From Alphaproteobacteria bacterium (lineage in GTDB: Bacteria > Pseudomonadota > Alphaproteobacteria > JAPOUT01 > G958296285): a DNA stretch of 64,000 nucleotides. This document shows positions 7,983 through 59,782 of this stretch, one piece after another (positions within the stretch are counted from its first letter, which is position 1; the number at the start of each line of letters is the position of its first letter). Both the position numbers and the translations under genes were made by a program. The notes beneath the pieces were generated by a model that made no database searches, had not been told where the DNA came from, and saw only the letters and a list, made by a program, of their open reading frames with translations. The DNA lies in contig CBDBFH010000029.1 in assembly GCA_965204775.1 (NCBI GenBank), positions 1 through 64,000 of the forward strand, written 5' to 3'.

Positions 7983-8597
7983 TTGAACACCAAAACCCCC
8001 GATGCAGAACTCAAGCGCGCCAAAGACAAGGCGCGGAAACAAGCCGACAGAATCCGCAAAAACATCGCACCCGAAGGCGGCGAAGAAGCCGCCGCCCGCC
8101 TCGCCGACCACTTCCTCGAAACCATTGCCCTGCCCGCCCCGGCCATCGTCGCCGGATATTGGCCGATCCGCGAGGAAATCAGCTCCCTGACCCTCCTGCG
8201 CCTCCTCCACGAACGCGGCCAGCCCTGCGCCCTCTCCCGCCTCGACGCCGAAGGCGAACCCCTCTCCTTCCGCAGATGGTCACCCGGCGACCCCCTCGAA
8301 GACGGCCCCTTCGACATCCCCCAGCCCCGCGCCGCCGCCCCGGCCTGCGCGCCTGACGCGCTCCTCATCCCCCTCCTCGCCTTCGACCGCCAGGGCCACC
8401 GCCTCGGATACGGGCGCGGCTACTACGACCGCGCCCTCGCCGAACTCAAAGCCAAAAAAACCATCTGCGCCGTCGGCCTCGCCTTCGCCGTCCAGGAAGT
8501 CCAGCACGTCCCCGCCGCAAGCCACGACATCCAGCTCGACTACATCGCCACCGAAAAGGCTTGCCTGCCAATCAAAAAAACCCCGCAAAATCAATAA
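7983..8597 (+). CDS. 5-formyltetrahydrofolate cyclo-ligase
   Basis: GYWPIREE and GYGRGYYDR motifs; probable TTG start at 7983 (the ORF track extends upstream to 7884). Confidence 0.75.
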   Translation: MNTKTPDAELKRAKDKARKQADRIRKNIAPEGGEEAAARLADHFLETIALPAPAIVAGYWPIREEISSLTLLRLLHERGQPCALSRLDAEGEPLSFRRWSPGDPLEDGPFDIPQPRAAAPACAPDALLIPLLAFDRQGHRLGYGRGYYDRALAELKAKKTICAVGLAFAVQEVQHVPAASHDIQLDYIATEKACLPIKKTPQNQ

Positions 8598-18306: not shown

Positions 18307-20220
18307 ATGACCTATCTGCGCCATCTTTTCATCTTTCTCTCGGCTGTGCTGATTCTGGCCTTCGCCTTCAACCTGTTCCAGGGCGGCGGCGGGGGCTTTG
18401 CCGCGCGCGACATCACCTTCTCGCAATTCCTGGCCGAGGTCGATGCAGGCAATGTGCGCGACGTGGTCATTGCCGGCGAAGAGATCACCGGACATTTTTC
18501 CAGCGGCGCGCAGTTCGAGACCTTCGCGCCCGACGATCCGGGTCTGGTCGCGCGCCTGCATGAGCGCGGCGTCGACATAGCCGCCGAACCGCCCGGCGCG
18601 CGCTCGCCTTCGCTCTTTGCAATCCTGGTCTCCTGGTTCCCGATGCTGCTCTTGATCGGGGTCTGGATATTTTTCATGCGGCAGATGCAGGGCGGCGCAG
18701 GCCGGGCAATGGGCTTCGGACGCTCGCGCGCGCGGATGCTCACCGAGCGGCAGGGCAAGGTGACCTTCGACGACGTGGCCGGAATCGACGAGGCCAAGGA
18801 AGACTTGCAGGAAATCGTCGAATTCCTGAAAGACCCGGGCCGGTTTCAGCGGCTGGGAGGCCGAATCCCGCGCGGGGTGTTGCTGGTCGGCCCGCCGGGG
18901 ACCGGCAAGACGCTGCTGGCCCGCGCCATCGCCGGCGAGGCCGACGCCCCCTTCTTCACAATTTCAGGGTCGGATTTCGTCGAGATGTTTGTCGGAGTCG
19001 GCGCAAGCCGGGTGCGCGACATGTTCGATCAGGCAAAGAAAAACGCGCCCTGCATCATCTTCATCGACGAGATCGACGCGGTGGGCCGCCATCGCGGCGC
19101 AGGGCTGGGCGGCGGAAATGACGAGCGCGAGCAGACCCTCAACCAGCTGCTGGTCGAGATGGACGGCTTCGAGGCCAATGAGGGAATCATTCTGATCGCC
19201 GCGACAAACCGGCCCGATGTGCTCGACCCGGCCCTGCTGCGTCCGGGGCGGTTTGACCGGCAGGTGGTGGTGCCCAATCCGGATATTGTGGGCCGGGAGA
19301 AAATTTTGAAGGTCCATATGCGCAAGGTGCCGCTGGGGCCGGATGTCGATGTCCGGACGATTGCGCGCGGAACGCCGGGCTTTTCAGGCGCGGATTTGGC
19401 CAATCTGGTCAATGAGGCGGCGCTGCTGGCCGCGCGCCGCGCCCGGAAGCTGGTCGGAATGCGCGAACTGGAGGACGCCAAGGACAAGGTGATGATGGGC
19501 GCGGAGCGCCGCTCAATGATCATGACCGAGGAGGAAAAGCGGCTGACCGCCTATCATGAGGGGGGGCATGCGCTGGTCGCGCTGCATTGTCCGGCCTCGG
19601 ACCCGATCCACAAGGCGACCATCATCCCGCGCGGGCGGGCGCTGGGAATGGTGATGCGCCTGCCGGAGCGCGACCAGCTGTCGGTGACGCGCGAGAAGCT
19701 GCATGCCGATCTGGCGGTGGCGATGGGGGGCCGGGTCGCCGAGGAGGTCATTTTCGGCCATGACAAGGTGACATCGGGAGCAAGTTCCGACATCAAGATG
19801 GCGACGCAGATGGCGCGGGCGATGGTGACACGCTACGGAATGAGCGAGAAGCTGGGGCCTTTGGCCTATCAGGATAATGAGGAGGAGGTGTTTTTGGGGC
19901 ATTCGGTTGCGCGCCAGCAGAACACCTCGGAGGAAACGCAGAAAGTGATTGACGCCGAGATCCGGCGGCTGGTCGAGGGAGCGCGGCAGCGGGCGCATAA
20001 GATCGTTGCAGTCAATCTTGAGGGGCTGCATGTGATTGCCAAAGGCCTGCTGGAATATGAAACGCTGACCGGCGACGAAATTCAGGGCTTGTTGAAGGGG
20101 GTCAAGCCGGACCGGAGCGAGCCGGAAGCGGAGGAAAAATTGCCGCCGCAGCCGGTGTCCTCGGTTCCCTCGGCGGGGATCGCGCCGCCGCAGCCCGGTC
20201 CCGCCCCCAGTTCTGCATGA
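18307..20220 (+). CDS. ftsH: ATP-dependent zinc metalloprotease FtsH
   Basis: Two N-terminal TM helices; Walker A GPPGTGKT; zinc-binding HEGGH; the ORF track extends upstream to 17932 but MTYLRHLF at 18307 is the likely start. Confidence 0.9.
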
Positions 20221-21038
20221 GCGGAAGCGGTTGGGGACCGGGCGCGCCCCGGATATTGGGTATTGTCAATATTACGCCGGATTCGTTTTCGGACGGGGGC
20301 TTGTATCTTGATCCGGAGCGGGCAATTGCGCATGGGCGCGCGCTGCGCGCGGCGGGGGCGGATGTGATTGATCTGGGCCCGGCCTCGAGCAATCCGGATG
20401 CGCAGCCGGTGAGCGCGGCGGAGGAGGAGAAGCGGCTGGGGCCGGTATTGGCGGCGCTGGCGGGGGAGGGGCTGAGTCTTTCGGTGGACTCGTTTTTGAC
20501 TGAAACGCAAAGATATGCGCTGGGGCGGGGGGTGGCGTATCTGAACGACATTCAGGGCTTTGCCGATGAGGCGTTTTATCCGGAATTGGCCTCGGCGTCT
20601 TGCCGTTTGATCGTGATGCATTCGGTTCAGGAGCGCGGCGGCGCCGACCGGCGCAGGCCTCCGCCGGGTTCGATGCTGGAGCGGGTTTGCCGGTTCTTTG
20701 ATGAGCGGCTGTCGAAACTGACGGCGGCGGGGGTGAATGAGGCCCGGCTGATACTGGATCCGGGAATGGGGTTTTTTCTGGGGAGCCGGCGGGAGGCGTC
20801 GCTGGAGGTTTTGGCGGGACTGGGCCGGTTGCGCGAGCGGTTTGGCCTGCCGGTATTGATCTCGGTTTCGCGCAAGTCCTTTTTGCGGGTGATCGCAGGC
20901 CGGGAGCCGGGGCAGGCGGGCTTTGCCACTCTGGCCGCCGAGTTGTTCGCAGCGAATTCGGGGGTTGACTATATCCGGACGCATGATCCGGGGGCCTTGC
21001 GGGACGGCTTGCGCGTTTGGCGCGCTTTGTCTTCTTGA
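20217..21038 (+). CDS. folP: dihydropteroate synthase
   Basis: [14 protein letters not shown] motif; ATGA overlap with the ftsH stop; conserved ftsH-folP-glmM synteny. Confidence 0.85.
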
Positions 21039-21234
21039 CGGGGGGCAGGCCCGCATCCGGCATGGCCTGGTCACCCGGCAGGCGCTTCACACAAAGATGG
21101 GGACGCTAAAGAAACCTGCAATAAATGGAAATATTTGTTGATTCCGCCCCTCTTCCCCCGAACGCCACAGACGCTATATTCACAAAAAAATGATTCGCAA
21201 CGCGCCCCATGCGCCGCGCCACGGACATCCTGAC

Positions 21235-22590
21235 ATGACCGAAAACAACCGAAAATATTTCGGAACCGACGGAATGCGCGGGCCCGCCAACCAATTCCCC
21301 GTCACCGCTCAAGTCGCCCTGCGCCTCGGAATGGCCGCAGGAAGACTCTTCACCCGCGGAAACCACAAACACCGCGCCGTCATCGGCAAAGACACCCGGC
21401 TCTCCGGATATATGATCGAATCCTCCCTCATGGCCGGACTCACCTCGATGGGAATCGACGTCTTCCTGCTTGGCCCGCTCCCCACGCCCGCGCTCGCCTT
21501 CATCACCCGGTCACTGCGCGCCGACCTCGGACTCATGATCTCCGCCTCGCACAACGGCTTCCAGGACAACGGAATCAAACTCTTCGGACCCGACGGATAC
21601 AAACTCTCCGACGAAATGGAGCAGCAAATCGAGCGCTATATGGACAACGGACTCGCCAGCCACCTCGCGCCCCCCGAACAGATCGGGCGCGCCAAAAGAA
21701 TCGAAGACGCTCAGGCCCGCTACATCGAATTCGCCAAGCGGTCCAGAGCCGCCGGCACCCCCCTCGACGGCCTGCGCATCGTCCTCGACTGCGCCAACGG
21801 CGCCGCTTACAAACTCGCTCCCGCCGCCCTCTGGGAACTCGGCGCAGACGTCATCACCATCCATGACAGACCCAACGGACTCAACATCAACCAGAATTGC
21901 GGCGCAACCCATCCTCAGGCCATGCAGGAGGCCGTCCGCGCCCACAAGGCCGATATCGGCATCGCCTTCGACGGCGACGCCGACCGCATCGCCGTCGCCG
22001 ACGAAAAAGGCGGCCACATCGACGGCGACCAGATCCTCGCCCTCCTCGCCCATAACTGGAAGGTCAGCGAAACCCTCGCCAAACCCGGAATCGTCGCCAC
22101 CATCCTCTCCAATCTCGGCCTGGAGCGCCACCTCCACTCTCTCGGCCTCGGCCTCGCCCGAACCCGGGTCGGCGACAGATACGTCGCCGAATATATGCGC
22201 CGGCACGGCTTCAATCTCGGCGGCGAAAGGTCCGGACACCTCCTCCTCACCGACTTCTCAACCACCGGCGACGGCCTGATCGCCGCCCTCCACATCCTCG
22301 ACGCCCTCGCCGCGCAAAACCGCCCCGCCAGCGAACTCTGCGCCCGCTTCCGGCCCGTCCCCCAAATCGAGCACAATATCCCCGCCGACCCTGCAAACCC
22401 CCTGGAAGCCCCGCACATCCAGTCCGCAATCCAAAACGCCACAGAACGGCTCGGCGGCGGCGGACGCCTCGTCGTCCGCCGCTCCGGAACCGAACCCGTC
22501 ATCCGAATCATGGGACAAGGCGACGACGAAAATCTCATCCGCGATGTCATCTTCCAAGTCGCAGAACGCCTCGAACCACGCCGCGCCTGA
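21235..22590 (+). CDS. glmM: phosphoglucosamine mutase
   Basis: [16 protein letters not shown]...[13 protein letters not shown], the active-site Ser motif. Confidence 0.9.
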
Positions 22591-25910: not shown

Positions 25911-26047
25911 AGAGGCGGGGATGATAGGGGGGCGGGGGCGCTGAGGGGCGTTTCTATCGCCATATTGACCTCCCTGCCCGCCTGCTTTATAGCAGGCGGC
26001 GGGACACCTCTCCCCACCGAGAGGCAGCTATCTGAAAGGGTAGAAAC

Positions 26048-27223
26048 ATGAATAGCCCCGCCAAACCGGCCATCCGACCCGCGCGCCCCTTCTTCTCCTC
26101 CGGACCCACCGCCAAATACCTGAACTGGTCGCCCGGACTCCTCGAACAGACCGCACTCTCCCGAAGCCACCGCTCAAAAGTTGGAAAAACACGGCTCAAA
26201 AAAGCCATCGCCGAAACTCGCGAACTCCTCCAACTGCCCAAAAACTACCGCGCCGCCATCGTCCCCGCCTCCGACACCGGCGCTTTCGAAATGGCCATGT
26301 GGTCACTGCTCGGACCGCGCGGCGTCGACGTCTTCGCATGGGACTCCTTCGGCAGCGACTGGGCCAATGACGCCAAAAACCAGCTCAAAATCCCCGACCT
26401 GCGAATCCTGCAGGCCGAATACGGCAAACTCCCCGACCTCGCCCAGGCCGATCCAAAACGCGACGCCGTATTCGTCTGGAACGGAACCACCTCCGGCGTC
26501 CGCGTGCCCCACGCCGAATGGATCGCCGACAACCGCCAGGGCCTCACCCTGTGCGACGCCACCTCCGCGGTCTTCGCACAAAAACTGCCCTGGAATAAAC
26601 TCGACGTCGTCACCTTCTCCTGGCAAAAAAGCCTCGGCGGCGAAGCCGCGCATGGAATCCTCATCCTCGGACCGCGCGCCGTCGAGCGGCTCGAAACCCA
26701 CACCCCCAACCGCCCAATCCCCAAAATCTTCCGCCTCACCTCCGGCGGCAAACTCAACGAAGCCCTCTTCGAAGGCGCAACCATCAATACCCCCTCCATG
26801 CTCTGCGTCGAAGACTACCTCGCCGCCCTCAACTGGGTCCGCTCCATCGGCGGCGAAGCCGCCATGATCCGCCGCGCCAACGCCAACCTCCAACTCATCG
26901 CACAATGGGCCGCAAAAACCAGCTGGATCGACTTCCTCTGCGCCAGCCCCGAAGCGCGCTCCAACACCTCGGTCTGCCTCAAAATCACCGACCCCGCCTT
27001 CACCCGCCTCGAAGAAAAAGACCGCAAAGCCTTCGTCAAAAGCATGGCCGCGCTCCTCGAAGACGAAGAGGCCGGATTCGACCTCGACTCCTATCGCGCC
27101 GCACCGCCCGGCCTGCGCCTGTGGGCCGGAGGAACCGTCGAAGCCGCCGACCTCATCGCCCTCTTCCCCTGGCTCGACTGGGCCTACGCCGCCTGCCTCA
27201 ACCGCTTCTCCCCCAAAGCATAA
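26048..27223 (+). CDS. serC: phosphoserine aminotransferase
   Basis: 391-aa class-V aminotransferase; PFFSSGP and FSWQKSLGGEA (PLP Lys region). Confidence 0.9.
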   Translation: MNSPAKPAIRPARPFFSSGPTAKYLNWSPGLLEQTALSRSHRSKVGKTRLKKAIAETRELLQLPKNYRAAIVPASDTGAFEMAMWSLLGPRGVDVFAWDSFGSDWANDAKNQLKIPDLRILQAEYGKLPDLAQADPKRDAVFVWNGTTSGVRVPHAEWIADNRQGLTLCDATSAVFAQKLPWNKLDVVTFSWQKSLGGEAAHGILILGPRAVERLETHTPNRPIPKIFRLTSGGKLNEALFEGATINTPSMLCVEDYLAALNWVRSIGGEAAMIRRANANLQLIAQWAAKTSWIDFLCASPEARSNTSVCLKITDPAFTRLEEKDRKAFVKSMAALLEDEEAGFDLDSYRAAPPGLRLWAGGTVEAADLIALFPWLDWAYAACLNRFSPKA

Positions 27224-27232
27224 GAGAACGCC

Positions 27233-28816
27233 ATGCCCAAAGTCCTGATCTCCGACAAACTCGCCCCCGCCACGCTCGACATCTTCGCCGCGCGCGGAGT
27301 CGAAGCCGACTTTAAGCCCGGACTCGACAAAAACAGCCTCGCACAGATCATCGGAAACTATGACGGCCTCGCCGTGCGCTCGGCGACCAAAGTCACCGCC
27401 AAACTCCTCGAACACGCCGCCGGACTCAAAGTCATCGGGCGCGCCGGAATCGGCGTCGACAATATCGACCTCGACGCCGCCAGCGTGCGCGGCATCATCG
27501 TCATGAACGCGCCGCTTGGAAACTCCATCACCACCGCCGAACACGCCCTCGCACTGATGATGGCCCTCGCCCGCCAAATCCCGCAGGCCGACCGCTCCAC
27601 CCAAAGCGGCAAATGGGAAAAAAGCGCCTTCCTCGGCGTCGAACTGGCCGGGAAAACCCTCGGCATCGTCGGGTGCGGCAATGTCGGCGCAATCGTCGCC
27701 CGCCGCGCCCAGGGCCTGGCCATGAAAGTCGCGGTCTACGACCCCTTCCTGCCCCGCGAACGCGCCGCAGAACTCGGCGTGGAAATCCTCGAACTCGACG
27801 AACTCCTCCCCCGCGCCGACTTCATAACCCTCCACACACCCCTCACCGATAAAACCAGACACATCATCAACCAAAACAACATCGCCAAAATGAAAGACGG
27901 CGCGCGGCTCGTCAACTGCGCGCGCGGCGGACTGATCGACGAGCAGGCCCTCAAAAACGCCCTCGAAAGCGGCAAACTCGCCGGAGCCGCTCTCGACGTC
28001 TTCAGCGAAGAACCCGCCAGAAACAATATCCTCTTCGGAGCCAAAAACATCATCTGCACCCCCCATCTGGGCGCTTCAACCTCGGAAGCGCAGGAAAAGG
28101 TCGCGCTCCAGATCGCCGACCAGATGAGCGACTACCTCCTCTCCGGCGCCGTCACCCACGCCGTCAATATGCCCTCGATCTCGGCGGAAGAAGCCCCGAA
28201 ACTCACCCCCTTCATCCGCCTCGCCCGGCAACTGGGCCGCCTCGCCGGGCAAATCCTCGAAGGCGGCGTCGTCGAGGCCGGATTCGAATATCAGGGCGAA
28301 GCCGCCCGCCTCAACGTCCCCGCACTCACCGCCGCCGCGCTCGCCGGACTCTTCGAACCCGTCCTCTCCGGCGTCAATATGGTCTCCGCCCCCGCCGCCG
28401 CCCGCGCGCGCGGAGTCAAAATCTCCGAAACCCGCATCGAAGAAGGCGGCGCTTACGAATCCTATATCCGCCTCTCCCTCAAAACCGAAAACAGCCGCCT
28501 CTCCGCCGCCGGAACCGTCTTCTCCGACGGACGGCCACGCCTCATCCAGATGGCCGGGATCGACATGGAAGCCGAATTCGCCCCCCATATGCTCTACGTC
28601 GCCAACCGCGACCTGCCCGGCTTCGTCGGCCAACTGGGCGGCGTGCTGGGCGGCAGCGGAGTCAACATCGCCTCCTTCAATCTGGGCCGCACAAAGCCGG
28701 GCGGCAAAGCCGCCGCGCTGATCGCCGTCGACGCGCCCGTCCCGCCCGAAACCCTCAAAGCCGTGCGCGCCACTGAGAATGTGGTCGCGGCGGCGGCGCT
28801 GGCCTTCCAGACATGA
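27233..28816 (+). CDS. serA: D-3-phosphoglycerate dehydrogenase
   Basis: [10 protein letters not shown]..., NAD-binding [10 protein letters not shown]-terminal ACT domain; 527 aa. Confidence 0.9.
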
Positions 28817-30105
28817 CCGGCGTCGCCGTCATCGGAACCCAGTGGGGCGACGAGGGCAAAGGCAAAATCGTCGACTGGCTCTCCGAGCGCGCCGACGTCG
28901 TCGTCCGCTTTCAGGGCGGGCACAATGCCGGGCATACCCTCGTCATCAACGGCAAAATCCACAAACTGAGCCTCCTGCCGGCGGGAGTCGTGCGGCCCGG
29001 CAAACTCAGCCTGATCGGCAACGGCGTGGTTCTCGATCCCTGGGCCTTCCTGGCGGAGGTCGCGCAACTGCGCGGGCAGGGGGTTGCGGTCGCGCCCGAT
29101 AATCTGCGGATTGCGGACAACGCCGCCCTGATCCTCCCCCTCCACCGCGAGATCGACGCCGCCCGCGAAGCCGCCAAAACCCGGCTGGGAACCACCGGGC
29201 GCGGAATCGGCCCGGCCTATGAGGACAAAATCGCCCGCCGGGCGGTCCGGGCCGGAGACCTCGCCGATCTGAAGAGTCTGCCCGGCAAGCTCGACCGCCT
29301 TCTGGCCCATCACAATGCGCTGCGGCGGGGTCTTTCGCCGCCCCGCCCGGAGATAGACCGGGCGCAGCTGGCAGAGGCGCTGGCCGGGGTTGCCCCGCAG
29401 ATCCGGCCCTATCTGGATGCGGTCTGGCTCCGGCTGGACGAGGCGCGCCGCGCCGGGCGGCGGATTCTCTTTGAGGGCGCGCAGGGTCTGATGCTGGATG
29501 TGGATCACGGCACCTATCCCTTTGTCACGTCTTCCAATACGGTGGCGGGGGCGGCGAGCGCGGGGGCGGGGGTGGGGCCGGATGCGCTGTCTTATGTTCT
29601 GGGTCTGGCGAAAGCCTATACGACGCGGGTGGGGGAGGGGCCTTTCCCGACCGAGCAGGACAATCAGACCGGCGCATTGCTGGGCGAGCGGGGGGCGGAG
29701 TTTGGAACCGTCACCGGGCGGCGGCGGCGCTGCGGGTGGTTTGATGCGGTTCTGGTGCGCCAGGCGGTCAAGATCGCCGGGGTTTCGGGGATTGCGCTGA
29801 CCAAACTCGACGTCCTCGACACGCTGGATGAGATCAAAATCTGCACGGCCTATAAATTGGCGGGCGCGCGGCGGGATTATCTGCCTTCGGAGCATATGGC
29901 GCAGGCCGCGCTGGAGCCGGTCTATGAGACGCTTGCCGGGTGGAAGCAAAGCACGCGGGCCGCGCGCTTCTGGCGCGACCTTCCGGCGCAGGCGGTCAAA
30001 TATGTGCGGATGATTGAGGAGCTGGTCGGCGCGCCGGTCGCGCTGCTCTCGACCTCGCCCGAGCGCGAGGACACCATCCTCATGCGCGACCCGTTTGCAG
30101 GCTAG
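28813..30105 (+). CDS. purA: adenylosuccinate synthetase
   Basis: [15 protein letters not shown]-loop; ATGA overlap with the serA stop; 430 aa. Confidence 0.9.
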
Positions 30106-30176
30106 CCTGTCACAGGCGAGCCTGTAACAGGCAAGCCTGTCGCAGGCAAGCCTGTCGCAGGCAAGCCGGTTTTCCG
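30098..30176. repeat. five tandem 15-16-bp units built on the palindrome ACAGGC-AAG-CCTGT
   Basis: Units gcaggctagcctgt / cacaggcgagcctgt / aacaggcaagcctgt / cgcaggcaagcctgt / cgcaggcaagccggt; partial copies recur at 31395-31425 and 33226-33262. Confidence 0.7.
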
Positions 30177-30262
30177 CCGGTGGGGGCGGGGTTTCGCCTC
30201 CGGCGGACGTCTCTTGACGGGGCAGGGCTTCGCCCCCCATTCTGCCCACAGGAGAGAGAGCC
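30166..30262 (+). promoter_or_regulatory. conserved leader upstream of Sel1 paralog 1: inverted repeat CCGCCGG..CCGGCGG, TTGACG -35-like box, GGAGAGAG RBS
   Basis: A near-identical 97-nt block recurs upstream of paralogs 2 and 4; TTGACG lies at 30214-30219; the -10 element is unclear. Confidence 0.35.
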
Positions 30263-31363
30263 ATGCCGAAGTTCACGAAAATCGCGCTTGCCATTTTCCT
30301 CACCGGACTGCTGGCGCAGACCCCGGCGGCAAGGGCCGAAGAGAATCTCGCCGATCTCAAAACCCGCGCCGAGGCAGGTGATTCCGAAGCGCAATACGAT
30401 CTGGGCTTTCTCTACGAGACGGGCCGGGGCGTGGAGCAGGATTATGAACAGGCGGCGCGGTGGTATCGCAAGGCCGCCGAACAGGGAAATGCAAAAGCGC
30501 AATCCAATCTGGGCCTTCTCTACGGGCAAGGCCGGGGCGTGGCGCAGGATTCCGCTCAGACGGCGCGCTGGTGGCGCAAGGCCGCCGAGCAGGGGCTGGC
30601 AGAAGCGCAAAACAATCTGGGCGTTCTCTACAAGCAAGGCTTGGGCGTGGCGCAGGATTACGGTGAGGCGCTGCAGTGGTATCGCAAGGCCGCCGAACAG
30701 GGGTTTGCAGCGGCTCAAACCAATCTGGGCCTTCTCTACGTGCAAGGCCGGGGCGTGGCGCAGGATTACGCACAGGCGGCGCAGTGGTATCGCAAGGCCG
30801 CCGAACAGGGAGAGGCAAAAGCGCAATACAATCTGGGCATTCTCTACGCGGAAGGCCGGGGCGTGGCGCAGGATTACGGACAGGCGGCGCAATGGTATTA
30901 CAAGGCCGCCCAACAGAGAAGTGCAAACGCGCAATCCAATCTGGGCTTTCTCTACGAGAATGGACGGGGCGTGGCGCAGGATTATGAACAGGCGGTGCGG
31001 TGGTATCGCAAGGCCGCCGAACAGGGAGATGTAAGGGCGCAAACCAGTCTGGGCTTTCTCTACGCTCAAGGCCGGGGCGTGACGCAGGATTATGGACAGG
31101 CGGTGCAGTGGTTTCGCAAAGCCGCCGAACAGGGAGATACACTTGCGCAATTCAATTTGGGCGTTTCCTACGAGCAAGGCCGGGGCGTGGCGCAGGATTA
31201 TAAGGAGGCTTATATCTGGTATAGCCTCGGTGCGGCCAATGGTTATAGCTCAGCTGAAGCAGGGCGTGATGAAGTGGCTTCGGGGCTTTCCCCAAAGGCT
31301 CTGCGCGGAGCGCAAAAAGAGGCGAAGCGGCGTCTCCAGCAAATCAGGGCGCGGCAGAAGTAA
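30263..31363 (+). CDS. secreted Sel1-like repeat (SLR) protein, paralog 1
   Basis: Signal peptide MPKFTKIALAIFLTGLLAQTPAARA followed by about 8 Sel1 repeats (AQ.NLG.LY..G.GV.QDY..A..WYRKAAEQG); conserved C-terminal tail ...KEAKRRLQQIRARQK. Confidence 0.85.
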   Translation: MPKFTKIALAIFLTGLLAQTPAARAEENLADLKTRAEAGDSEAQYDLGFLYETGRGVEQDYEQAARWYRKAAEQGNAKAQSNLGLLYGQGRGVAQDSAQTARWWRKAAEQGLAEAQNNLGVLYKQGLGVAQDYGEALQWYRKAAEQGFAAAQTNLGLLYVQGRGVAQDYAQAAQWYRKAAEQGEAKAQYNLGILYAEGRGVAQDYGQAAQWYYKAAQQRSANAQSNLGFLYENGRGVAQDYEQAVRWYRKAAEQGDVRAQTSLGFLYAQGRGVTQDYGQAVQWFRKAAEQGDTLAQFNLGVSYEQGRGVAQDYKEAYIWYSLGAANGYSSAEAGRDEVASGLSPKALRGAQKEAKRRLQQIRARQK

Positions 31364-31420
31364 ATGCGGGGGCGCGGCCCGCAGTCGTGACCCGTTTGCG
31401 GGCTGGCCTATCGCAGGCAA

Positions 31421-31519
31421 GCCGGTTTTCCGCCGGTGGGGGCGGGTCTTCGCCTCCGGCGGACGTCTCTTGACGGGGCAGGGCTTCGCCCCCCATTCTG
31501 CCCACAGGAGAGAGACCCC
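31421..31519 (+). promoter_or_regulatory. copy 2 of the Sel1 leader/promoter block
   Basis: More than 95% identical to 30166-30262 by eye. Confidence 0.35.
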
Positions 31520-32836
31520 ATGCCGAAGTTCACGAAAATCGCGCTTGCCATTTTTCTGACCGGGCTGCTGGCGCAGGCCCCGGCGGCAAGGGCCGAAGAG
31601 AATCTCGCCGATCTCAAAACCCGCGCCGAGGCAGGCGAAGCCGATTCGCAATTCTATCTGGGCGTTCTTTACAGGAAGGGCTGGGGTGTTGCGCAGGATC
31701 ACGGGCAGGCGGCGCGCTGGTTTCGCAAGGCTGCCGAACAGGGGAATGCACTCGCGCAATCTGTTCTGGGCGCGCTCTACGTGCAAGGCCAGGGCGTAGC
31801 GCAGGATTACGGGCAGGCGGTGCAGTGGTATCGCAAAGCCGCCGAACAGGGGAATGCATCCGCGCAAGCGGGTTTGGGTGCGCTCTACGAGCAAGGCCGG
31901 GGTGTAAAGCAGGATTCCGCTCAGGCGGTGCGCTGGTTTCGCAAGGCCGCCGAACGGGGGAGTGCACCCGCGCAAGCTGGTCTGGGCGCACTCTACGAGC
32001 AAGGCTGGGGCGTGGCGCAGGATTCCGCTCAGGCGGCGCGCTGGTATCGCAAAGCCGCCAAACAGGGCTATGCAGATGCACAAATCAATTTGGGCCTTCT
32101 CTATGCGACGGGTCAGGGCGTGGCGCAGGATTACGCGCAGGCGGCGCAGTGGTTTCATAAAGCTGCCGAACAGGGGGTGGCAGACGCGCAGGCCGTTTTG
32201 GGTGCTCTCTACGCAGAAGGGGAGGGAGTGGCACAGGATCACGGGCGGGCGGCGCATTGGTATCGCAAGGCCGCTAAACAGGGAAATGCAGACGCGCAAT
32301 ACAATCTAGGCGTTTTCTATGAAAAAGGCCGGGGTGTGGCGCAGGATTATGCGCAGGCAGCGCGCTTGTGGCACAAGTCTGCCGATCAGGGGTTTGGAGA
32401 AGCGCAACACAATCTGGGCGTTCTCTACGAGAATGGACGGGGCGTAGCACAGGATTATGGGCGCGCGGCGCAATGGTATCGCAAGGCCGCCGAACAGGGA
32501 TATGCACAAGCACAAAACAATCTGGGCCTTCTCTACGCGAAAGGCCAAGGCGTAGCGCAGGAGGAAGCACAGGCAGTGCAGTGGTTTCGCAAGGCCGCCG
32601 GTCAGGGATTGGCAGAAGCACAATATAGTCTGGGTGCTCTTTATAAGCTAGGCCGGGGCGTGGCACAGGACGATAAGGAGGCTTATATCTGGTATAGCCT
32701 TGCCGCCGCCAATGGTTATGAACGGGCTAAAAAATCGCGTGATGGAGCGGCTTTGAATCTTTCCCCAAAGGCTCTGCGAGAGGCGCGGGCAGAGGCGAAG
32801 CGGCGTCTGGAAGAAATCAGGGCGCGGCAGAAGTAA
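31520..32836 (+). CDS. secreted Sel1-like repeat protein, paralog 2
   Basis: Same signal peptide and about 10 Sel1 repeats; the ORF track's upstream extension to 31436 is leader sequence. Confidence 0.85.
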   Translation: MPKFTKIALAIFLTGLLAQAPAARAEENLADLKTRAEAGEADSQFYLGVLYRKGWGVAQDHGQAARWFRKAAEQGNALAQSVLGALYVQGQGVAQDYGQAVQWYRKAAEQGNASAQAGLGALYEQGRGVKQDSAQAVRWFRKAAERGSAPAQAGLGALYEQGWGVAQDSAQAARWYRKAAKQGYADAQINLGLLYATGQGVAQDYAQAAQWFHKAAEQGVADAQAVLGALYAEGEGVAQDHGRAAHWYRKAAKQGNADAQYNLGVFYEKGRGVAQDYAQAARLWHKSADQGFGEAQHNLGVLYENGRGVAQDYGRAAQWYRKAAEQGYAQAQNNLGLLYAKGQGVAQEEAQAVQWFRKAAGQGLAEAQYSLGALYKLGRGVAQDDKEAYIWYSLAAANGYERAKKSRDGAALNLSPKALREARAEAKRRLEEIRARQK

Positions 32837-33190
32837 ATGCCGGAATTCTTGAAAACCGCCCCGATCTTTCTGATTGCCCTTCTGGTTGCCTGTGCGCCGG
32901 TGGTGAAAGATCGCGTGGGGGGCGAGGGTGTCGCCTCCTTGCAGGCCCGCGCCGAGGCAGGCGAAGCCGAGGCGCAATTCGATCTGGGCCTTCTCTACAA
33001 GCAAGGCAGGGGCGTGACGCAGGATTATAAGGAGGCTTATATCTGGTATAGCCTCGGGGCGGCCAATGGGTATAGCTCAGCTGAAGCAGGGCGTGATGAA
33101 GTGGCGGCGAGGCTTTCCCCAAAGGCCCAGCGCGAAGCCCAAAAAGAGGCGAAGCGGCGTCTCCAGAAAATCAGGGCGCGGCAGAAGTAA
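32837..33190 (+). CDS. small Sel1-repeat lipoprotein (single SLR unit)
   Basis: TAAATG junction with paralog 2; lipobox LLVACAP; one Sel1 repeat plus the shared C-terminal tail. Confidence 0.7.
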   Translation: MPEFLKTAPIFLIALLVACAPVVKDRVGGEGVASLQARAEAGEAEAQFDLGLLYKQGRGVTQDYKEAYIWYSLGAANGYSSAEAGRDEVAARLSPKAQREAQKEAKRRLQKIRARQK

Positions 33191-33260
33191 GCGCAGGGAC
33201 GCGGCCCGCAGGCGCGACCCGTTTGCGGGCCGGCCTGTTACAGGCAAGCCTGTCGCAGGC

Positions 33261-33354
33261 TGATCTCCTGCCGTAGGGGCGGAGTGCCGCCTCCGGCAGA
33301 TATCTCTTGACGGGGCAGGGCTTCAAACCCCATCCTCCCACAGGAGAGAGATAC
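33261..33354 (+). promoter_or_regulatory. diverged copy 3 of the Sel1 leader/promoter block
   Basis: Contains ccgcctccggcagatatctcttgacggggcagggcttcaaacc...caggagagag. Confidence 0.3.
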
Positions 33355-34602
33355 ATGCCGAAATTCACGAAAATCACGCTCGCCTTTTTCCTCACCGGAA
33401 TGCTGGCGCAGGCCCCGGTGACAAGCGCCGAAGAGAACCTCGCCGATCTCAAAACCCGCGCCGAGGACGGACAGGCGGCGCAGTGGTATCGCAAAGCCGC
33501 CGAACAGGGAGAGGTGGCCGCGCAAAACAATCTGGGCGTTCTCTATGGGACAGGGGAGGGCGTGACGCAGGGGTGGGGGAAGGCAGTGCAGTGGTGGCGC
33601 AAAGCCGCCGAGCAGGGAGATGCAGTAGCGCAATACAAACTGGGCGTTCTCTACGAGAAAGGCCAGGGTGTGGCGCAGGATTACGCGCAGGCGGCGCAGT
33701 GGTATCGCAAGGCCGCCGAACAAGGGGTTGCAGAAGCACAATACAATCTGGGCGTTCTCTACGCGCAAGGCCGGGGCGTGGCGCAGGATTCCGCTCAGGC
33801 GGCGCAGTGGTATCGCAAGGCCGCCGAACAAGGATTTGCAGAAGCACAATACAATCTGGGCGTTCTCTATGGGACAGGGGAGGGCGTGACGCAGGGTTGG
33901 GGGAAGGCGGTGCAGTGGTGGCGCAAAGCCGCCGAACAGGGAGATGCTGTAGCGCAATACAAGCTGGGCGTTCTCTACGAGAAAGGCCAGGGTGTGGCGC
34001 AGGATTCCACTCAGGCCGCGCAGTGGATTCGCAAGGCCGCCGAACAGGGAGAGGTAAACGCACAGCGCACTTTGGCCTTTCTCTACGAGAAAGGCCGGGG
34101 TGTGCCGCAGGATTCCGCTCAGGCCGCGCAGTGGTTTCGCAAGGCCGCCGAACAGGGAGATGCGAGCGCGCAAAACAGTCTGGGCTTTCTCTACGAGAAA
34201 GGCCGGGGTGTGCCGCAGGATTCCGCTCAGGCCGCGCAGTGGATTCGCAAGGCCGCCGAACAGGGAAATGCACTTGCGCAAGCCAGGCTGGGCTTTCTCT
34301 ACGAGCAAGGCCGGGGTGTGGCGCAGGATTCCACTCAGGCCGCGCAGTGGTTTCGCAAGGCCGCCGAACAGGGACATGCACCCGCGCAAGCTGGTCTGGG
34401 CATTCTCTACGCTCAAGGCTGGGGCGTGGCGCAGGATTATAAGGAGGCTTATATCTGGTATAGCCTCGGGGCGGCCAATGGGTATAGCTCAGCTGAAGCA
34501 GGGCGTGATGAAGTGGCGGCGAGGCTTTCCCCAAAGGCCCAGCGCGAAGCCCAAAAAGAGGCGAAGCGGCGTCTCCAGCAAATCAGGGCGCGGCAGAAGT
34601 AA
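33355..34602 (+). CDS. secreted Sel1-like repeat protein, paralog 4
   Basis: Signal peptide MPKFTKITLAFFLTGMLAQAPVTSA followed by about 10 Sel1 repeats; an internal repeat block GTGEGVTQGWGKAVQWWRKAAEQGDAVAQYKLGVLYEKGQGVAQD is duplicated. Confidence 0.85.
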   Translation: MPKFTKITLAFFLTGMLAQAPVTSAEENLADLKTRAEDGQAAQWYRKAAEQGEVAAQNNLGVLYGTGEGVTQGWGKAVQWWRKAAEQGDAVAQYKLGVLYEKGQGVAQDYAQAAQWYRKAAEQGVAEAQYNLGVLYAQGRGVAQDSAQAAQWYRKAAEQGFAEAQYNLGVLYGTGEGVTQGWGKAVQWWRKAAEQGDAVAQYKLGVLYEKGQGVAQDSTQAAQWIRKAAEQGEVNAQRTLAFLYEKGRGVPQDSAQAAQWFRKAAEQGDASAQNSLGFLYEKGRGVPQDSAQAAQWIRKAAEQGNALAQARLGFLYEQGRGVAQDSTQAAQWFRKAAEQGHAPAQAGLGILYAQGWGVAQDYKEAYIWYSLGAANGYSSAEAGRDEVAARLSPKAQREAQKEAKRRLQQIRARQK

Positions 34603-34945
34603 GCGCAGGGACGCGGCCCGCAGGCCTGCGCCCTTTGTGATTCGCCCGGCGCTTCGCACGGCGGAAAACCCGGACATTGGCGCAAATCTCCTTGCGCGCC
34701 ATCCGCGCCTGCGCCAGCGAATAAGCCTGCTGAAGGCGCAGCATAAAGTCGGCATCCAGTCCAAACGCCTTCTCAATCCGCAACGCCATTTCCGCAGACA
34801 AATTCACCCGCCCGTTGACCATCGCCGAAACCGACTGACGGCTCATCCCCAAAATCTCCGCCGCCTGCTTGATCGAAACTCCAAGGGGCTTCAAAACCCC
34901 CTCCAGAATTATCTCGCCGGGGTGGCTTGGATCATACATCGGCAT
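34583..34945 (-). CDS. higA: HigA family addiction-module antitoxin (XRE HTH)
   Basis: PMYDPSHPGEIILEGVLKPLGVSIKQAAEILGMSRQSVSAMVNGR; the last 14 codons are antisense of the Sel1 paralog-4 3' end. Confidence 0.8.
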   Translation of the reverse strand: MPMYDPSHPGEIILEGVLKPLGVSIKQAAEILGMSRQSVSAMVNGRVNLSAEMALRIEKAFGLDADFMLRLQQAYSLAQARMARKEICANVRVFRRAKRRANHKGRRPAGRVPALTSAAP

Positions 34946-35007: not shown

Positions 35008-35298
35008 CTAGTGATAATCTTCGAGAGAGACGTCGTAGACGTCCTGTCCGTCAAAGCGGAATGTGACCCGCCAGTTCCCGGAAATCCGGACGCTCCAGAA
35101 ACCCCTTCTACTGCCCCCCAAAGGGTGAAGGCGGTAGCCGGGCAGGCCATCAAATGCATCAAGGGAGGTCATCTTATCCAGCAGGGCCAAAACCTGCTTC
35201 AATCTTTCGGCAAAGTCAGGGTTGATACCCTTCCGGCTCCCGGTCTTATAGAATCTTTCCAATCTCTTATTCTTATTGGCAAAGGTTTTTATGGACAT
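35008..35298 (-). CDS. higB: HigB toxin (RelE/ParE superfamily mRNA interferase)
   Basis: 96 aa; plasmid-maintenance killer-protein pattern (FDGLPGYRLHPLGGSRRGFWSVRISGNWRVTFRF); located upstream of higA; reduced GC. Confidence 0.8.
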   Translation of the reverse strand: MSIKTFANKNKRLERFYKTGSRKGINPDFAERLKQVLALLDKMTSLDAFDGLPGYRLHPLGGSRRGFWSVRISGNWRVTFRFDGQDVYDVSLEDYH

Positions 35299-35443
35299 TT
35301 TTGTCTCATTTCGCCTCCAAGAGGTTATTATTTATATATGTAGTGATAAGGACATTTTTGGACACTTATTCAGGCAAATTTTGCACTTTTTTTGCACTGA
35401 ACGTGCGGGCCTAAATTTCCTCACAGGCTGACAATCACCTCCT

Positions 35444-35710
35444 TCAACTAAAGATTAAACCAAGCAACGCAAGAATTAGCATAGGAATTCCTATTAGCAA
35501 AAATGCCCAAAATCCTATTACAAGGATGATAAAAATACCTGCCAAAATAAAGGGTAACAACAATGCCCCTAACACTGCCCCCAGTAATGCACCTCCAATT
35601 ACTCCTAATATTCCTCCACCAGAACCCCAGATTCCCCCGATAATCATGCCTATGAAAGCTCCGAAATCTTCGGCATCTCGATCGCCATTCGGTATCTTGC
35701 CCCTATCCAT
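35444..35710 (-). CDS. small glycine-zipper membrane protein (about 88-99 aa)
   Basis: Charged N-terminus followed by GxxxG-rich double TM (IGGIWGSGGGILGVIGGALLGAVLGALL...); markedly AT-rich (about 40% GC); the longer start at 35743 would overlap tldD. Confidence 0.4.
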   Translation of the reverse strand: MDRGKIPNGDRDAEDFGAFIGMIIGGIWGSGGGILGVIGGALLGAVLGALLLPFILAGIFIILVIGFWAFLLIGIPMLILALLGLIFS

Positions 35711-35723
35711 TCGCTTTGGCCGA

Positions 35724-37151
35724 TTAAGTTTTCGTGCCTCCAACCGTCAACCCCGCAATCAGAAGACTCGGCTGGCCAACCCCGACCGGTACGCTCTGCC
35801 CGTCCTTGCCGCACGTCCCGATCCCCGGATCCAGCGCCATGTCATTCCCGATCATCTTCACCTTCGTCAAAACATCCGGCCCGTTGCCAATCAACATCGC
35901 TCCCTTTAACGGCGCCCCAATCTTGCCGTTCTCAATCCGGTACGCTTCCGTGCACGAAAACACAAACTTGCCGCTCGTAATGTCAACCTGACCACCACCA
36001 AAATAGGGCGCGTATATCCCACTCTTCACCGAACCAATCATCTCCTCCCGGTCATGAACACCGTTCAGCATGAACGTGTTCGTCATGCGCGGCATCGGAA
36101 CATGCGCATACGACTCCCGCCGCCCGTTACCCGTCGGCGCGCGACCCATAACCCGCGCATTCAGACGGTCCTGTATGCAACAACGCAAAATCCCGTCCTC
36201 AATCAATACCGTCCGCGACGCCGGAGTCCCCTCGTCGTCAATCGTCAATGATCCCCGACGGTCCGGCAACGTCCCGTCATCCACAACCGTCACTCCAGGC
36301 GAGGCAATCCGCTTGCCCTCCAGACCCGCAAAGGCCGACGTCCCCTTCCGGTGAAAATCCCCCTCCAATCCATGACCCACCGCCTCATGCAGCAAAATCC
36401 CCGGCCAGCCCGAACCCAAAACCACATCCATCTCTCCCGCAGGCGCTGGAACCGAACCCAAATTCACCAATGCCTGACGCAATGCCTCGTCAACCTGACC
36501 GCGCCAGCAACCCGGCTCTATGATCCGCCCATAACCATAACGCCCGCCGGAGCCGCTCATCCCAGACTCCCGCCGCCCACCGCCCTCAACAATCACCTGA
36601 ACCGAAAGACGAACCAAAGGCCGAATGTCAAAAACTACACCCCCGGAACGCACAATCCCCACAACCTGCCACTCCCCCGACAACGACGCGCTCACCTGCC
36701 TGACCCGGCTGTCACGACCCCGCGCATAGACGTCCATCTCGCGCAGCAGCGCAACCTTGTCCTCAAATCCCTCCCCCTCCAGAGGATCGTCCCCGCCATA
36801 GGCGCGCGCATTCGTCCGCCGCGGAGCCAAAGCCGCACCGCCCCCTCCGCCCCGCAAAACCGAACGAACCGTCTCCCCCGCCCGCCTCAGCGAACCCTCC
36901 GAAATCTCCGAACTATGCGCATAGCCCGTCCGCTCGCCCGAAACCGCCCGCAAGCCAACGCCGCTCGTCTCGTCAAAACGCGCCGTCCTGATCCGCCCGT
37001 CGTCCAGACCCACCGACTCCGAGCGCCGAAACTCAAAAAACGCCTCACCATCATCACAACCGCGCAACGCCTCGCCAACCAAACGCTCCACACGCCCCCG
37101 GTCCAGACCGTGACGCGAAAACAAAAACTCCTCCGCTCGCGCCCCCATCAC
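35724..37151 (-). CDS. tldD: metalloprotease TldD
   Basis: HEAVGHGLEGD, GNGRRESYAHVPMPRMTNT and GGQVDITSGKFVF motifs; collinear with E. coli TldD over its full length. Confidence 0.9.
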   Translation of the reverse strand: MMGARAEEFLFSRHGLDRGRVERLVGEALRGCDDGEAFFEFRRSESVGLDDGRIRTARFDETSGVGLRAVSGERTGYAHSSEISEGSLRRAGETVRSVLRGGGGGAALAPRRTNARAYGGDDPLEGEGFEDKVALLREMDVYARGRDSRVRQVSASLSGEWQVVGIVRSGGVVFDIRPLVRLSVQVIVEGGGRRESGMSGSGGRYGYGRIIEPGCWRGQVDEALRQALVNLGSVPAPAGEMDVVLGSGWPGILLHEAVGHGLEGDFHRKGTSAFAGLEGKRIASPGVTVVDDGTLPDRRGSLTIDDEGTPASRTVLIEDGILRCCIQDRLNARVMGRAPTGNGRRESYAHVPMPRMTNTFMLNGVHDREEMIGSVKSGIYAPYFGGGQVDITSGKFVFSCTEAYRIENGKIGAPLKGAMLIGNGPDVLTKVKMIGNDMALDPGIGTCGKDGQSVPVGVGQPSLLIAGLTVGGTKT

Positions 37152-37668: not shown

Positions 37669-40079
<2,411 letters not shown>

Positions 40080-54963: not shown

Positions 54964-55011
54964 CTCTTCCGCCCGGACCCGTATCATCAAACCCGACATG
55001 CGCATGAAAAG

Positions 55012-55200
55012 CGCGCGCGGGAGAGACCGGTTGACGGCGCCGAAGGAGCAATCCCCGAAAACTCTCAGGCAAAAGGACCGCACGCGAAAACGCGCAACTC
55101 TGGAAAGCAAGCCGAATCAAACATGATCCGGCTTCACCGAAGGGGTAACGCGGGCTGACGCCCGTTAAATCTCTCAGGTCAAGCGACAGAGGGGGCGAGC
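55012..55200 (+). promoter_or_regulatory. tandem glycine riboswitch (two aptamers) in the gcvT leader
   Basis: Aptamer 1: GGGAGAG...GCGCCGAAGGAGCAA...CTCTCAGGCAAAAGGAC; aptamer 2: CTCTGGAAAG...CACCGAAGGGGTAACGC...CTCTCAGG...GACAGAGGG; followed by hairpin gcctgccgggcaggc ahead of ATG 55250. Confidence 0.75.
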
Positions 55201-55249: not shown

Positions 55250-56422
55250 ATGACAGCGCAACAACAGGCACACGGCAGGCCGACCCCGCTCCATGCCCTG
55301 CATACGGAGCGGCGCGCCCGCTTCGCCCCCTTCGCCGGATATGCCCTGCCGGTCTCCTTTCCCCCAGGGATTCTGGCCGAGCACCGCCATACCCGCACCG
55401 CCGCCGGCCTGTTCGATGTTTCCCATATGGGGCAGGCCGATCTCGAGGCCGATCCCGCCTGCCTCGAAACCCTCTTCCCCGCAGATATCGCCGGACTGAA
55501 CGCGGGGCGTCTGCTCTACACGATCCTGCTCAACCCCCAGGGCGGGATCATTGACGATCTGATCATCGCCCGCCTGTCCGGCAGCCTCTTCCGGATCGTC
55601 ATCAATGCCGCCGGGGCGGAAAACGTCTGCGCCCATATCGCGCAATCTCTGGCCGGGCGCGCCACCCTGCGCCCCCGGCCCGATCTGGCTCTGCTCGCCC
55701 TGCAGGGGCCTTTGAGCGCGCCGGCGCTGGGCAGCCTGTCGCCGAAAGCCGTCCGCCTGCCTTTCATGGCCGCCGCCGCCCTCGATCTGGCCGGACATGC
55801 CTGTCTCGTCAGCCGGTCGGGCTATACCGGCGAGGACGGCTATGAAATCTCCATCCCCGCCGAAGGGGCCGAAACGCTGGCCCGGCAACTGCTCGCGCAA
55901 GACGGCGTAAAACCCGCCGGGCTGGGCGCGCGCGATTCGCTCAGACTCGAAGCCGGCCTGTGCCTCTATGGCAGCGATATCGACGAAACCACCTCCCCCC
56001 TTGAAGCCGGACTCCTCTGGACCATCCCGCCCCGCCGCCGCGCCGAAGCCAATTTCCCCGGGGCCGCCGCCCTGGCCGCACAGATCGAAAACGGCGCCCG
56101 GCGCCGCCGCATCGGCCTCAAAATCAAAAGCCCGCGCCCCGTCCGCGCCCATGCCGAAATCCTCGACGCCAACCGCCGGCCCGCCGGACTCGTCACCAGC
56201 GGCGGAATCGCCGCAACCTGCGATTCCCCAATCGCCATGGGCTATGTCCGCACCGGCTGCGACTCCCCCGGCTCCCCCCTCTTCGTGCGCGCCCGCGATT
56301 CCCTCCTGCCCGCCGAAGCCCATCGCCTGCCCTTTCGCCCCCATCGCTATCACCGGCCCAAACCAAACCCCTCAACAACGCGAGAACGCCATGAGCGAAA
56401 CCTTTTACACCGATCAGCATGA
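55250..56422 (+). CDS. gcvT: glycine cleavage system aminomethyltransferase T
   Basis: GLFDVSHMGQ motif; C-terminal PFRPHRYHR is followed by a 15-aa tail that overlaps gcvH by 32 nt. Confidence 0.9.
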   Translation: MTAQQQAHGRPTPLHALHTERRARFAPFAGYALPVSFPPGILAEHRHTRTAAGLFDVSHMGQADLEADPACLETLFPADIAGLNAGRLLYTILLNPQGGIIDDLIIARLSGSLFRIVINAAGAENVCAHIAQSLAGRATLRPRPDLALLALQGPLSAPALGSLSPKAVRLPFMAAAALDLAGHACLVSRSGYTGEDGYEISIPAEGAETLARQLLAQDGVKPAGLGARDSLRLEAGLCLYGSDIDETTSPLEAGLLWTIPPRRRAEANFPGAAALAAQIENGARRRRIGLKIKSPRPVRAHAEILDANRRPAGLVTSGGIAATCDSPIAMGYVRTGCDSPGSPLFVRARDSLLPAEAHRLPFRPHRYHRPKPNPSTTRERHERNLLHRSA

Positions 56423-59642: not shown

Positions 59643-59782
59643 AGAAAAGTTGGGAATAAGACGATTTTCCAATTTAGATTCGCTTGACTCATGATTCTGG
59701 GCCTTTTAATGATGTTTGGATACAGAATGGTTGGCGCTTGACATATTGAGTAGCGCCTAGTTTCCTTGCAGGAGGGGTATTG

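Follow-up and report, generated by a model that had tools for sequence, protein, structure and literature searches.

A tandem array of Sel1-repeat protein genes with purA-tail relics downstream of purA in an alphaproteobacterium

The DNA analysed here, referred to as the window, is a 64,000-nt stretch from an Alphaproteobacteria bacterium (GenBank assembly GCA_965204775.1, contig CBDBFH010000029.1, positions 1 to 64,000 of the forward strand), and the subject of this report is an array of four genes encoding proteins with Sel1-like repeats (SLRs), all located on the same strand downstream of the adenylosuccinate synthetase gene purA. An intact purA (28813-30105, plus strand), identified by its sequence and by Pfam PF00709 Adenylsucc_synt (E 7e-169), is followed on the plus strand by 1) S1 (30263-31363), encoding a protein of 366 aa with a putative signal peptide, 8 Sel1 repeats and, at its C-terminus, a cap helix (Pfam Sel1 E 1e-84; AlphaFold2, AF2; Foldseek), 2) S2 (31520-32836), encoding 438 aa from the ATG at 31520 with 10 Sel1 repeats (E 4e-94), 3) Sm (32837-33190), encoding 117 aa with a single Sel1 repeat, a cap and an LVAC lipobox (E 3e-9), and 4) S3 (33355-34602), encoding 415 aa from the ATG at 33355 with 9 Sel1 repeats arranged as 3 x 324 nt (E 6e-94). 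An earlier note, made from the sequence alone, had described four Sel1-repeat genes of these lengths; the open reading frames (ORFs) were found as it gave them, and all four matched Pfam Sel1. Sm has no leader, its ATG directly abutting the S2 TAA. Repeat finders revealed a strict 108-nt period within each of the three large genes (8, 10 and 9 repeats, with one in Sm) and an additional 324-nt higher-order period in S3. Beyond S3 lie the convergent higA (34583-34945, minus strand) and its partner higB (35008-35298, minus strand), both identified with Pfam. It was also noticed that long antisense ORFs of 349-392 aa, with high G+C at third codon positions (GC3), lie over the SLR genes on the minus strand (30110-31177, 31250-32299 and 33238-34416), and that a simple GC3-based gene caller favoured them over the SLR genes.

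Against Pfam PF08238 (Sel1), S1, S2 and S3 scored 276-306 bits over 8-10 stretches and Sm scored 37.4 bits, all above the cut-off of 30.7, which places the four proteins in this family. The AF2 model of S1 had a mean pLDDT of 92.9 and was a regular alpha/alpha solenoid in which eight helix pairs are flanked by a cap helix at the N-terminus and a long, basic one at the C-terminus, with residues 1-20 disordered; the model of Sm was poor (pLDDT 60.6). By inspection, the signal peptides of S1 and S2 consist of MPKFTK, IALAIFLTGLLA and ARA|EE, with TSA|EE in S3, and look canonical in having a K-rich n-region, a hydrophobic core and A-x-A sites. That of Sm is a diverged homologue (MP.F.K.A.IFL..LL..AP) in which Q19 is replaced by the cysteine of the L-V-A-C lipobox. 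On these features of the sequence, export of the SLR proteins appears plausible.

Foldseek searches with the S1 model retrieved LceB (TM 0.83 with 41% identity), HcpC (TMt 0.87), EsiB (E 3e-22; by sequence E 2e-112), Oxalobacter SLR proteins and LpnE. LceB and LpnE of Legionella, EsiB (c5321) of E. coli, HcpC of H. pylori and the Oxalobacter proteins have the same fold and repeat type as the array proteins, but there is no orthology, the similarity being limited to generic repeats. Each repeat of an Hcp protein carries a disulfide pair, whereas none of the 24 canonical internal repeats of the array contained cysteine, which sets the array proteins apart from the Hcp family. EsiB binds secretory immunoglobulin A and LpnE binds host factors, but these partners cannot be transferred to the array proteins. 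ExoR, MotX, AlgK and MerG are exported periplasmic SLR scaffolds, as the array proteins would be, and gave partial matches to hidden Markov models (HMMs); all the array proteins fell below the NCBIfam equivalog cut-offs, with 222-291 vs 350 for MerG, 70-81 vs 450 for ExoR, ~100 vs 330 for MotX and 86-105 vs 700 for AlgK. The C-terminal module is likewise a common SLR cap, since many unrelated SLR proteins aligned through their own C-termini in a HMMER search with Sm as the query. The array products are thus ordinary SLR solenoids with putative signal peptides.

The last 22 nt of purA, GCGCGACCCGTTTGCAGGCTAG (30084-30105), encoding the ...RDPFAG* end, recur twice within the array, as relic 1 at 31385-31406 (18 of 22 matches) and relic 2 at 33212-33233 (19 of 22), and each relic is followed by the same leader as purA itself. 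RDPF is the conserved C-terminus of PurA, and copying must therefore have proceeded from purA to the relics and not in the reverse direction. When up to 3 mismatches were allowed, a 25-mer spanning the purA tail matched only purA and the unit-3 relic, with 0.00 matches expected in shuffles. The proposal of the earlier note that a tandem duplication dragged a purA 3' fragment and the leader along with each copy is supported by these data, the tail recurring far above chance and being co-linear with the leader in all three units; the unit boundaries that it had placed at 31364 and 33203 are corrected to the relic starts, 31385 and 33212.

Alignment of the four 3' flanks and three leaders revealed how the relics are joined to the preceding genes. 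At junction 1 (31364-31406, plus strand), an SLR 3' flank (31364-31384) is joined to relic 1, and the region folds into a hairpin of -32.9 kcal/mol. At junction 2 (33191-33233, plus strand), recognised by alignment and fold, the flank at 33191-33213 is joined to relic 2 with a GC shared at the join, forming a 13-bp hairpin to which each parent sequence contributes one arm. Sm and S3 share without a difference the first 23 nt that follow their stop codons, GCGCAGGGACGCGGCCCGCAGGC. Behind Sm this flank continues as GCGACCCGTTTGC..., which is the purA tail, whereas behind S3 it continues as unrelated sequence belonging to the 3' end of higA. This last copy of the flank (34603-34625, plus strand; alignments), identical to 33191-33213 before it diverges, overlaps the 3' end of the convergent higA ORF. 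The 3' side of S1 carries a diverged version of the same flank/purA-tail join. A novel join is thus present at both 31364-31406 and 33191-33233, and the outer flanks are unique, with the intact purA at the left end and the 23-nt flank followed by unique sequence at the right, which is what defines a tandem segmental duplication. As read from the alignments, the join is a classical tandem-duplication junction, its left breakpoint lying 22 nt ahead of the purA stop and its right one 23 nt past the SLR stop, and 34603-34625 marks where the duplicated block ends on the right. Because the join is the same at both internal junctions, the later copies stem from unequal homologous exchange among the earlier ones.

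Upstream of the two breakpoints, the adjoining 25 nt showed weak similarity (14/25, empirical p 0.005; 12/25, p 0.035 in a second comparison). A purA relic longer than 22 nt was rejected, since the terminal copy has the same flank without a relic, and a weak homeologous patch at the crossover is the better interpretation of the upstream match. By eye, the minus-strand higA ORF extends ~25 codons beyond the usual HigA end (34583-34660), so that it overlaps both the 23-nt flank and the final 20 nt of S3; the array's right breakpoint abuts the 3' end of higA and may have altered that end.

The leader of unit 1 contains a 15-nt palindromic minisatellite, CAGGCAAGCCTGTCA, present in 4.7 tandem copies (30098-30167, plus strand; Tandem Repeats Finder), the first of which spans the purA stop codon. 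The minisatellite folds as a single long hairpin (-52.2 kcal/mol, z -6.35), and about 1.5 and 2.5 copies are kept in units 2 and 3, respectively. The 13-mer core of the palindrome had 12 matches in the window compared with 1.2 expected; 11 of these are in the three leaders and the remaining one, with 1 mismatch, is at 8555. A genome-wide repetitive extragenic palindromic element was rejected as the source of the 15-mers for this window, the motif being confined to the three leaders. Next in unit 1 is a terminator-like hairpin of 13 pairs, CCGCCGG...CCGGCGG with an inner GC stem, followed by ACGTCTCTT (30174-30206, plus strand), and then a 22-mer, TCTCTTGACGGGGCAGGGCTTC (30210-30231, plus strand), containing the -35-like TTGACG at 30214-30219; a Shine-Dalgarno (SD) sequence, AGGAG, is located ~8 nt before the ATG. 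The corresponding hairpin and 22-mer are at 31430-31462 and 31466-31487 in unit 2 (leader elements 31430-31487, plus strand), and at 33268-33299 and 33303-33324 in unit 3 (33268-33324, plus strand). The 22-mer is exact in all three leaders and absent from the rest of the window (0.00 expected in shuffles), and the hairpin is 100% paired in 3/3 units, with one compensatory change (C-G to U-A) in unit 3. After the hairpin come (A/T)TCTCTT, TTGACG, a spacer rich in C and, 8 nt ahead of the ATG, AGGAGAGAGA. The palindromic repeats and the conserved hairpin-plus-TTGACG leader pointed out in the earlier note are therefore real features of the three units. An alternative fold, in which UCUCUU pairs with the SD sequence, was also found; all Rfam matches in the leader were far below gathering scores, and sigma-54 and extracytoplasmic function (ECF) sigma factor motifs, checked by eye, did not fit. 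The simplest reading of the leader would be that of a weak terminator with a promoter and a Shine-Dalgarno sequence behind it.

Direct repeats of a gene 3' end around inserted units are typical of integrative elements, and together with the palindromic junctions they would also be compatible with site-specific insertion of cassettes or an island, as in an integron or a tandem island, at an att-like 3' end of purA, the purA-tail repeats being att scars. We consider this extremely unlikely. A convincing copy of the purA tail is missing from the terminal unit, nothing resembling an attC core was seen, and within the window the locus does not have the defining features of an integron or integrative element; the units are mutually paralogous and share one identical novel join, as duplication predicts, and only the single mismatched copy of the palindromic 13-mer lies outside the leaders in the window. 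Moreover, no integrase, transposase or recombinase gene was found among the neighbours examined, from ftsH (17932) to ctaB (41031), within the 64-kb window.

Comparison of the units revealed a mosaic pattern of divergence. The 5' modules of units 1 and 2, comprising the last 15-mer, the leader and the first 117 coding nt, are ~96-97% identical over ~240 nt (~97% in the non-coding leader), after which identity falls abruptly to ~78% at 30378/31635; unit 3 is 87-89% identical to units 1 and 2 over the first 117 coding nt. At the other end, the 3' modules of Sm and S3 are identical at 161/162 positions, with a synonymous divergence (dS) of 0 across 159 coding nt and a further 23 non-coding nt that do not differ, and that of S1 is 94% identical to them. 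The 3' module of S2 is the most diverged (78-80%), and the near-identical C-termini claimed for these proteins are accordingly confined to S1, Sm and S3. Over all end modules dS ranges from 0 to 0.46, with S2 reaching 0.29-0.46. The S2 C-terminal module (32675-32836) differs from that of S1 by 15 non-synonymous vs 4 synonymous codon differences (non-synonymous divergence, dN, 0.22; dS 0.29), which suggests that the S2 cap may be under relaxed or diversifying selection. The internal repeats are 70-92% identical at the DNA level (median dS 0.43, dN 0.24), with no positional orthology between genes. In S3, the best tract among the three 324-nt blocks is 174 nt at 94%, and repeat 1 has 69 nt deleted in frame. 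At the S2/Sm abutment, the flank of S1 reads TAAATGCGGGG... and S2 then has TAAATGCCGGAATTC..., as expected if a deletion had taken place between two ATGC sequences, one in the flank and one at the next start codon.

The relationships at the 5' and 3' ends are incongruent, since S2 groups with S1 at its 5' end and with none of the others at its 3' end. Because of these incongruent ends, the sharp identity boundaries and the zero synonymous divergence in one tract, the sequences indicate that gene conversion and unequal crossing-over have probably acted on an older family, rather than that the array grew in one recent duplication burst. The earlier note had regarded the expansion as recent and prone to recombination; recency holds for the homogenised end tracts, as in Sm/S3, but not for the array as a whole, with its internal divergence and lack of positional orthology, whereas recombination-driven change in repeat number is upheld as history by the 8/10/1/9 repeats and by the 324-nt duplication and 69-nt deletion in S3.

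The median dS of the internal repeats, the 3-4 differences per 22 nt between the relics and purA and the divergence of the S2 end modules would fit an old and stable paralogue family, in which the signal peptide, cap helix and regulatory DNA were under purifying selection that kept the ends similar. However, protein-level selection does not freeze synonymous and intergenic sites, and neither the unbroken identity of Sm and S3 through coding and non-coding positions, nor the sharp drop to ~78% bordering the ~97% identical non-coding leader of units 1 and 2, nor the differing affinities of the two ends of S2 are what such a family predicts; we therefore regard it as unlikely. Mis-assembly of a repetitive region is a further concern, since highly periodic 108-nt repeats are difficult for short-read assembly and the copy structure is seen in a single contig from one sample. 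Nevertheless, all four reading frames are intact and in register, no pair of tracts exceeds ~220 nt above ~97% identity, and indels and substitutions set the units apart in a mosaic that is consistent and has clean junctions, so that an assembly artefact is very unlikely.

We consider it likely that the four genes, paralogues encoding exported SLR solenoid proteins, make up a lineage-specific tandem array formed by tandem duplication and then reshuffled by recombination; its anatomy and its history of duplication and conversion are written in the DNA of the array. Its ancestor would have been a single SLR gene between purA and the convergent higBA module. An illegitimate crossover would have joined a point 23 nt past the SLR stop to a point 22 nt before the purA stop, creating a duplicated block composed of the purA tail, the 15-nt palindromes, the GC hairpin, the TTGACG/SD leader, the SLR gene and its 3' flank, and further rounds of unequal homologous crossing-over may then have produced four units. 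The leader of the third unit was presumably removed by deletion between the two ATGC tetranucleotides, placing Sm directly after the S2 stop; Sm would have shrunk to one repeat, with its signal peptide gaining a lipobox, and S3 would have grown by duplication of a three-repeat block with loss of 69 nt from its first repeat. Gene conversion may have homogenised the end modules patchwise, at the 5' ends of units 1 and 2 and the 3' ends of Sm and S3. As to its working, we infer that S1, S2-Sm and S3 are separate expression units, each with the terminator-like hairpin in front of it, along with a short leader that carries a strong Shine-Dalgarno sequence, and that export would proceed via Sec and signal peptidase I for S1, S2 and S3 and via the lipoprotein pathway for Sm. 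The products are predicted to be periplasmic or surface protein-binding scaffolds, with the number of repeats and the surface residues differing among the paralogues.

Searches for relatives yielded no array-bearing relative in the genome, metagenome or protein collections searched. In a PurA scan of genome contigs the best match was 71%, and no SLR gene was found within 10 kb downstream in any alphaproteobacterial match; the nearest PurA sequences in 5.8 billion clusters were 72-73% identical and came from Hyphomicrobiales-like organisms. The serC-serA-purA synteny is common to distant Alphaproteobacteria, and none of those sharing it had an SLR gene downstream of purA. A search with the full-length S1 protein was swamped by generic Sel1 proteins, and an exhaustive HMMER search with Sm returned generic SLR proteins only. 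With a chimeric query of the N- and C-terminal modules, only the Sm of this window matched, and no match came from a protein-pattern scan of metagenomes or from a degenerate DNA pattern for QDYKEAYIWYS. No tandem SLR paralogues were found near the two database proteins most similar in architecture, both being single-copy in their context, and the 90% clusters of the proteins of this contig were singletons.

The composition of the region was also unusual, strand asymmetry in this genome being extreme. GC skew at fourfold sites of core genes in both orientations was -0.6 to -0.77 on the plus strand, with A > T (for example at 21190-22590, 26048-28816, 35724-37151 and 38292-40079), compared with 0 to -0.3 in relatives; the skew of the window as a whole was -0.17, compared with values within +-0.09 in 15 proteobacterial purA loci (13 alphaproteobacterial and 2 from Pseudomonas). 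The SLR genes were skew-neutral (-0.05 to +0.07), and within purA the sign of the skew flipped near 29,280, from -0.33 to +0.28 (reversed patch 29250-30105). A second reversed patch at ~19000-21038 covers the 3' part of ftsH (+0.14) and folP (+0.55). Such reversed patches in single-copy core genes look like imports by mosaic recombination, or like a history of rearrangement. Long-resident core genes of Alphaproteobacteria are located at GC-skew peaks (PMC9836097); therefore, we hypothesize that the neutral array and the flipped 3' part of purA have a shorter or different residence history, possibly as a purA-anchored import.

It is accordingly possible, although doubtful, that in addition to the duplications a block reaching from ~29,280 in purA to the end of the array was recombined in via purA from an array-bearing donor. 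Such an import would account for the opposite skews of the two parts of purA and for the neutrality of the SLR genes beside the strongly skewed serC, serA, glmM, coxA and tldD, given the skew peaks that long-resident core genes occupy (PMC9836097). On the other hand, the nearest relatives of the two purA halves did not differ clearly, the SLR genes are neutral and so unlike the reversed purA 3' part, their repeats share one consensus and hence are not independent samples of composition, and the patch in ftsH and folP indicates a phenomenon that is not specific to the array. Separate donors for the two purA halves were considered as well and not retained, their identities to relatives being too noisy to tell.

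Several observations weigh against the origin by duplication and the mode of working set out above. The compositional anomaly starts inside purA, and hence the duplications may have taken place in a donor genome rather than in place. The evidence comes from one contig, and the proposed order and age of events are provisional; the similarity of the 5' and 3' modules could stem partly from purifying selection. The exact S1-S3 proteins, their alternative-start forms and the antisense ORFs were all absent from a collection of 15 billion proteins in which purA, serA, Sm, higA and higB of the same 313,407-bp contig were present, and public annotation of the SLR locus may be incomplete or different. 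As for expression, a consensus scan called no consensus sigma-70 promoter in any of the three leaders, in which only the -35-like TTGACG is conserved and the best -10 candidate has 3/6 matches, and the SLR genes might be read through from purA. The promoter block that the earlier note placed in each unit is a candidate feature, and the role in host interaction and the continuing repeat-number variation that it suggested are speculative. Covariation in the hairpin, drawn from three paralogous leaders only, was not significant, being reached in 184/500 shuffles.

The array is set in the core chromosome, with ftsH, folP, glmM, thiD, a PhzF-family gene, an alanine symporter gene, the serC leader, serC, serA and purA on one side and tldD, coxB, coxA and ctaB on the other. 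The serC leader (RF00517, 71 bits; 25997-26048) is directly upstream of serC. A low-GC stretch (0.39-0.47) at 35300-35750, upstream of higB, contains a very hydrophobic, glycine-rich ORF of 99 aa (35444-35743, minus strand) without a Pfam match. Farther away, a low-GC island at 59780-61207 (0.435 vs ~0.65), situated between glycine-cleavage genes and the gene for the ATP synthase b-subunit, contains a 475-aa ORF without a Pfam match, and a glycine riboswitch (RF00504, 68 bits; 55008-55090) is located upstream of the ORF at 55250-56422, in the region of the glycine-cleavage genes.

The closest precedent for the purA array is the slrV/msf tandem SLR locus of Haemophilus influenzae, in which SLR genes occur in tandem, in 0-4 copies, between core genes, each with an N-terminal signal peptide, a conserved C-terminal motif and a variable number of 36-aa SLR motifs; there the trees of the motifs conflict with those of the genes, which has been read as duplication and contraction of both genes and motifs (PMC4792463). 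The two loci are alike in having tandem SLR genes between core genes, signal peptides, conserved C-termini and variable motif numbers. However, SlrV proteins have 2-5 motifs and a two-cysteine C-terminus, whereas the purA array has 1-10 motifs, cysteine-free repeats and a basic cap helix; and, unlike slrV/msf, the purA array, known from the sequence of one locus, still shows its own duplication join in the form of the purA-tail relic. The tandem lipoprotein cluster lpl of S. aureus is shuffled by homologous recombination within ORFs, and the conserved segment of the purA array made up of the 3' end of one unit, the intergenic stretch plus the 5' end of the next recalls it (PMC2568036). In lpl, though, the central conserved region recombines and the ends vary, whereas in the purA array, with its conserved or converted ends, it is the repetitive centre that provides homology, and the lpl protein family is unrelated to SLR proteins.

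The locus reveals no new mechanism, since variable tandem SLR clusters with conserved signal peptides and C-termini have already been described in Haemophilus influenzae. One could go further and view the array as an active diversity-generating locus of a deep-branching alphaproteobacterium, with the conserved 3'-flank, purA-relic, leader and signal-peptide modules and the 108-nt repeats as recombination anchors and the block from the purA 3' part to the array as exchangeable, but we think this improbable; if true, repeat number and surface residues would be continually reshuffled among co-expressed, exported SLR proteins, giving population variation in binding specificity, and that block would be swapped between strains by recombination anchored in purA. 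What the locus does offer is an unusually well preserved join of a gene-family expansion, in which a 22-nt piece of a housekeeping gene was carried with the duplicated copies. With clear footprints of conversion, deletion and repeat-block duplication, it provides a worked example of how a family of exported repeat proteins may grow and diversify, and it points to candidate envelope or surface proteins of a lineage without a close sequenced relative.

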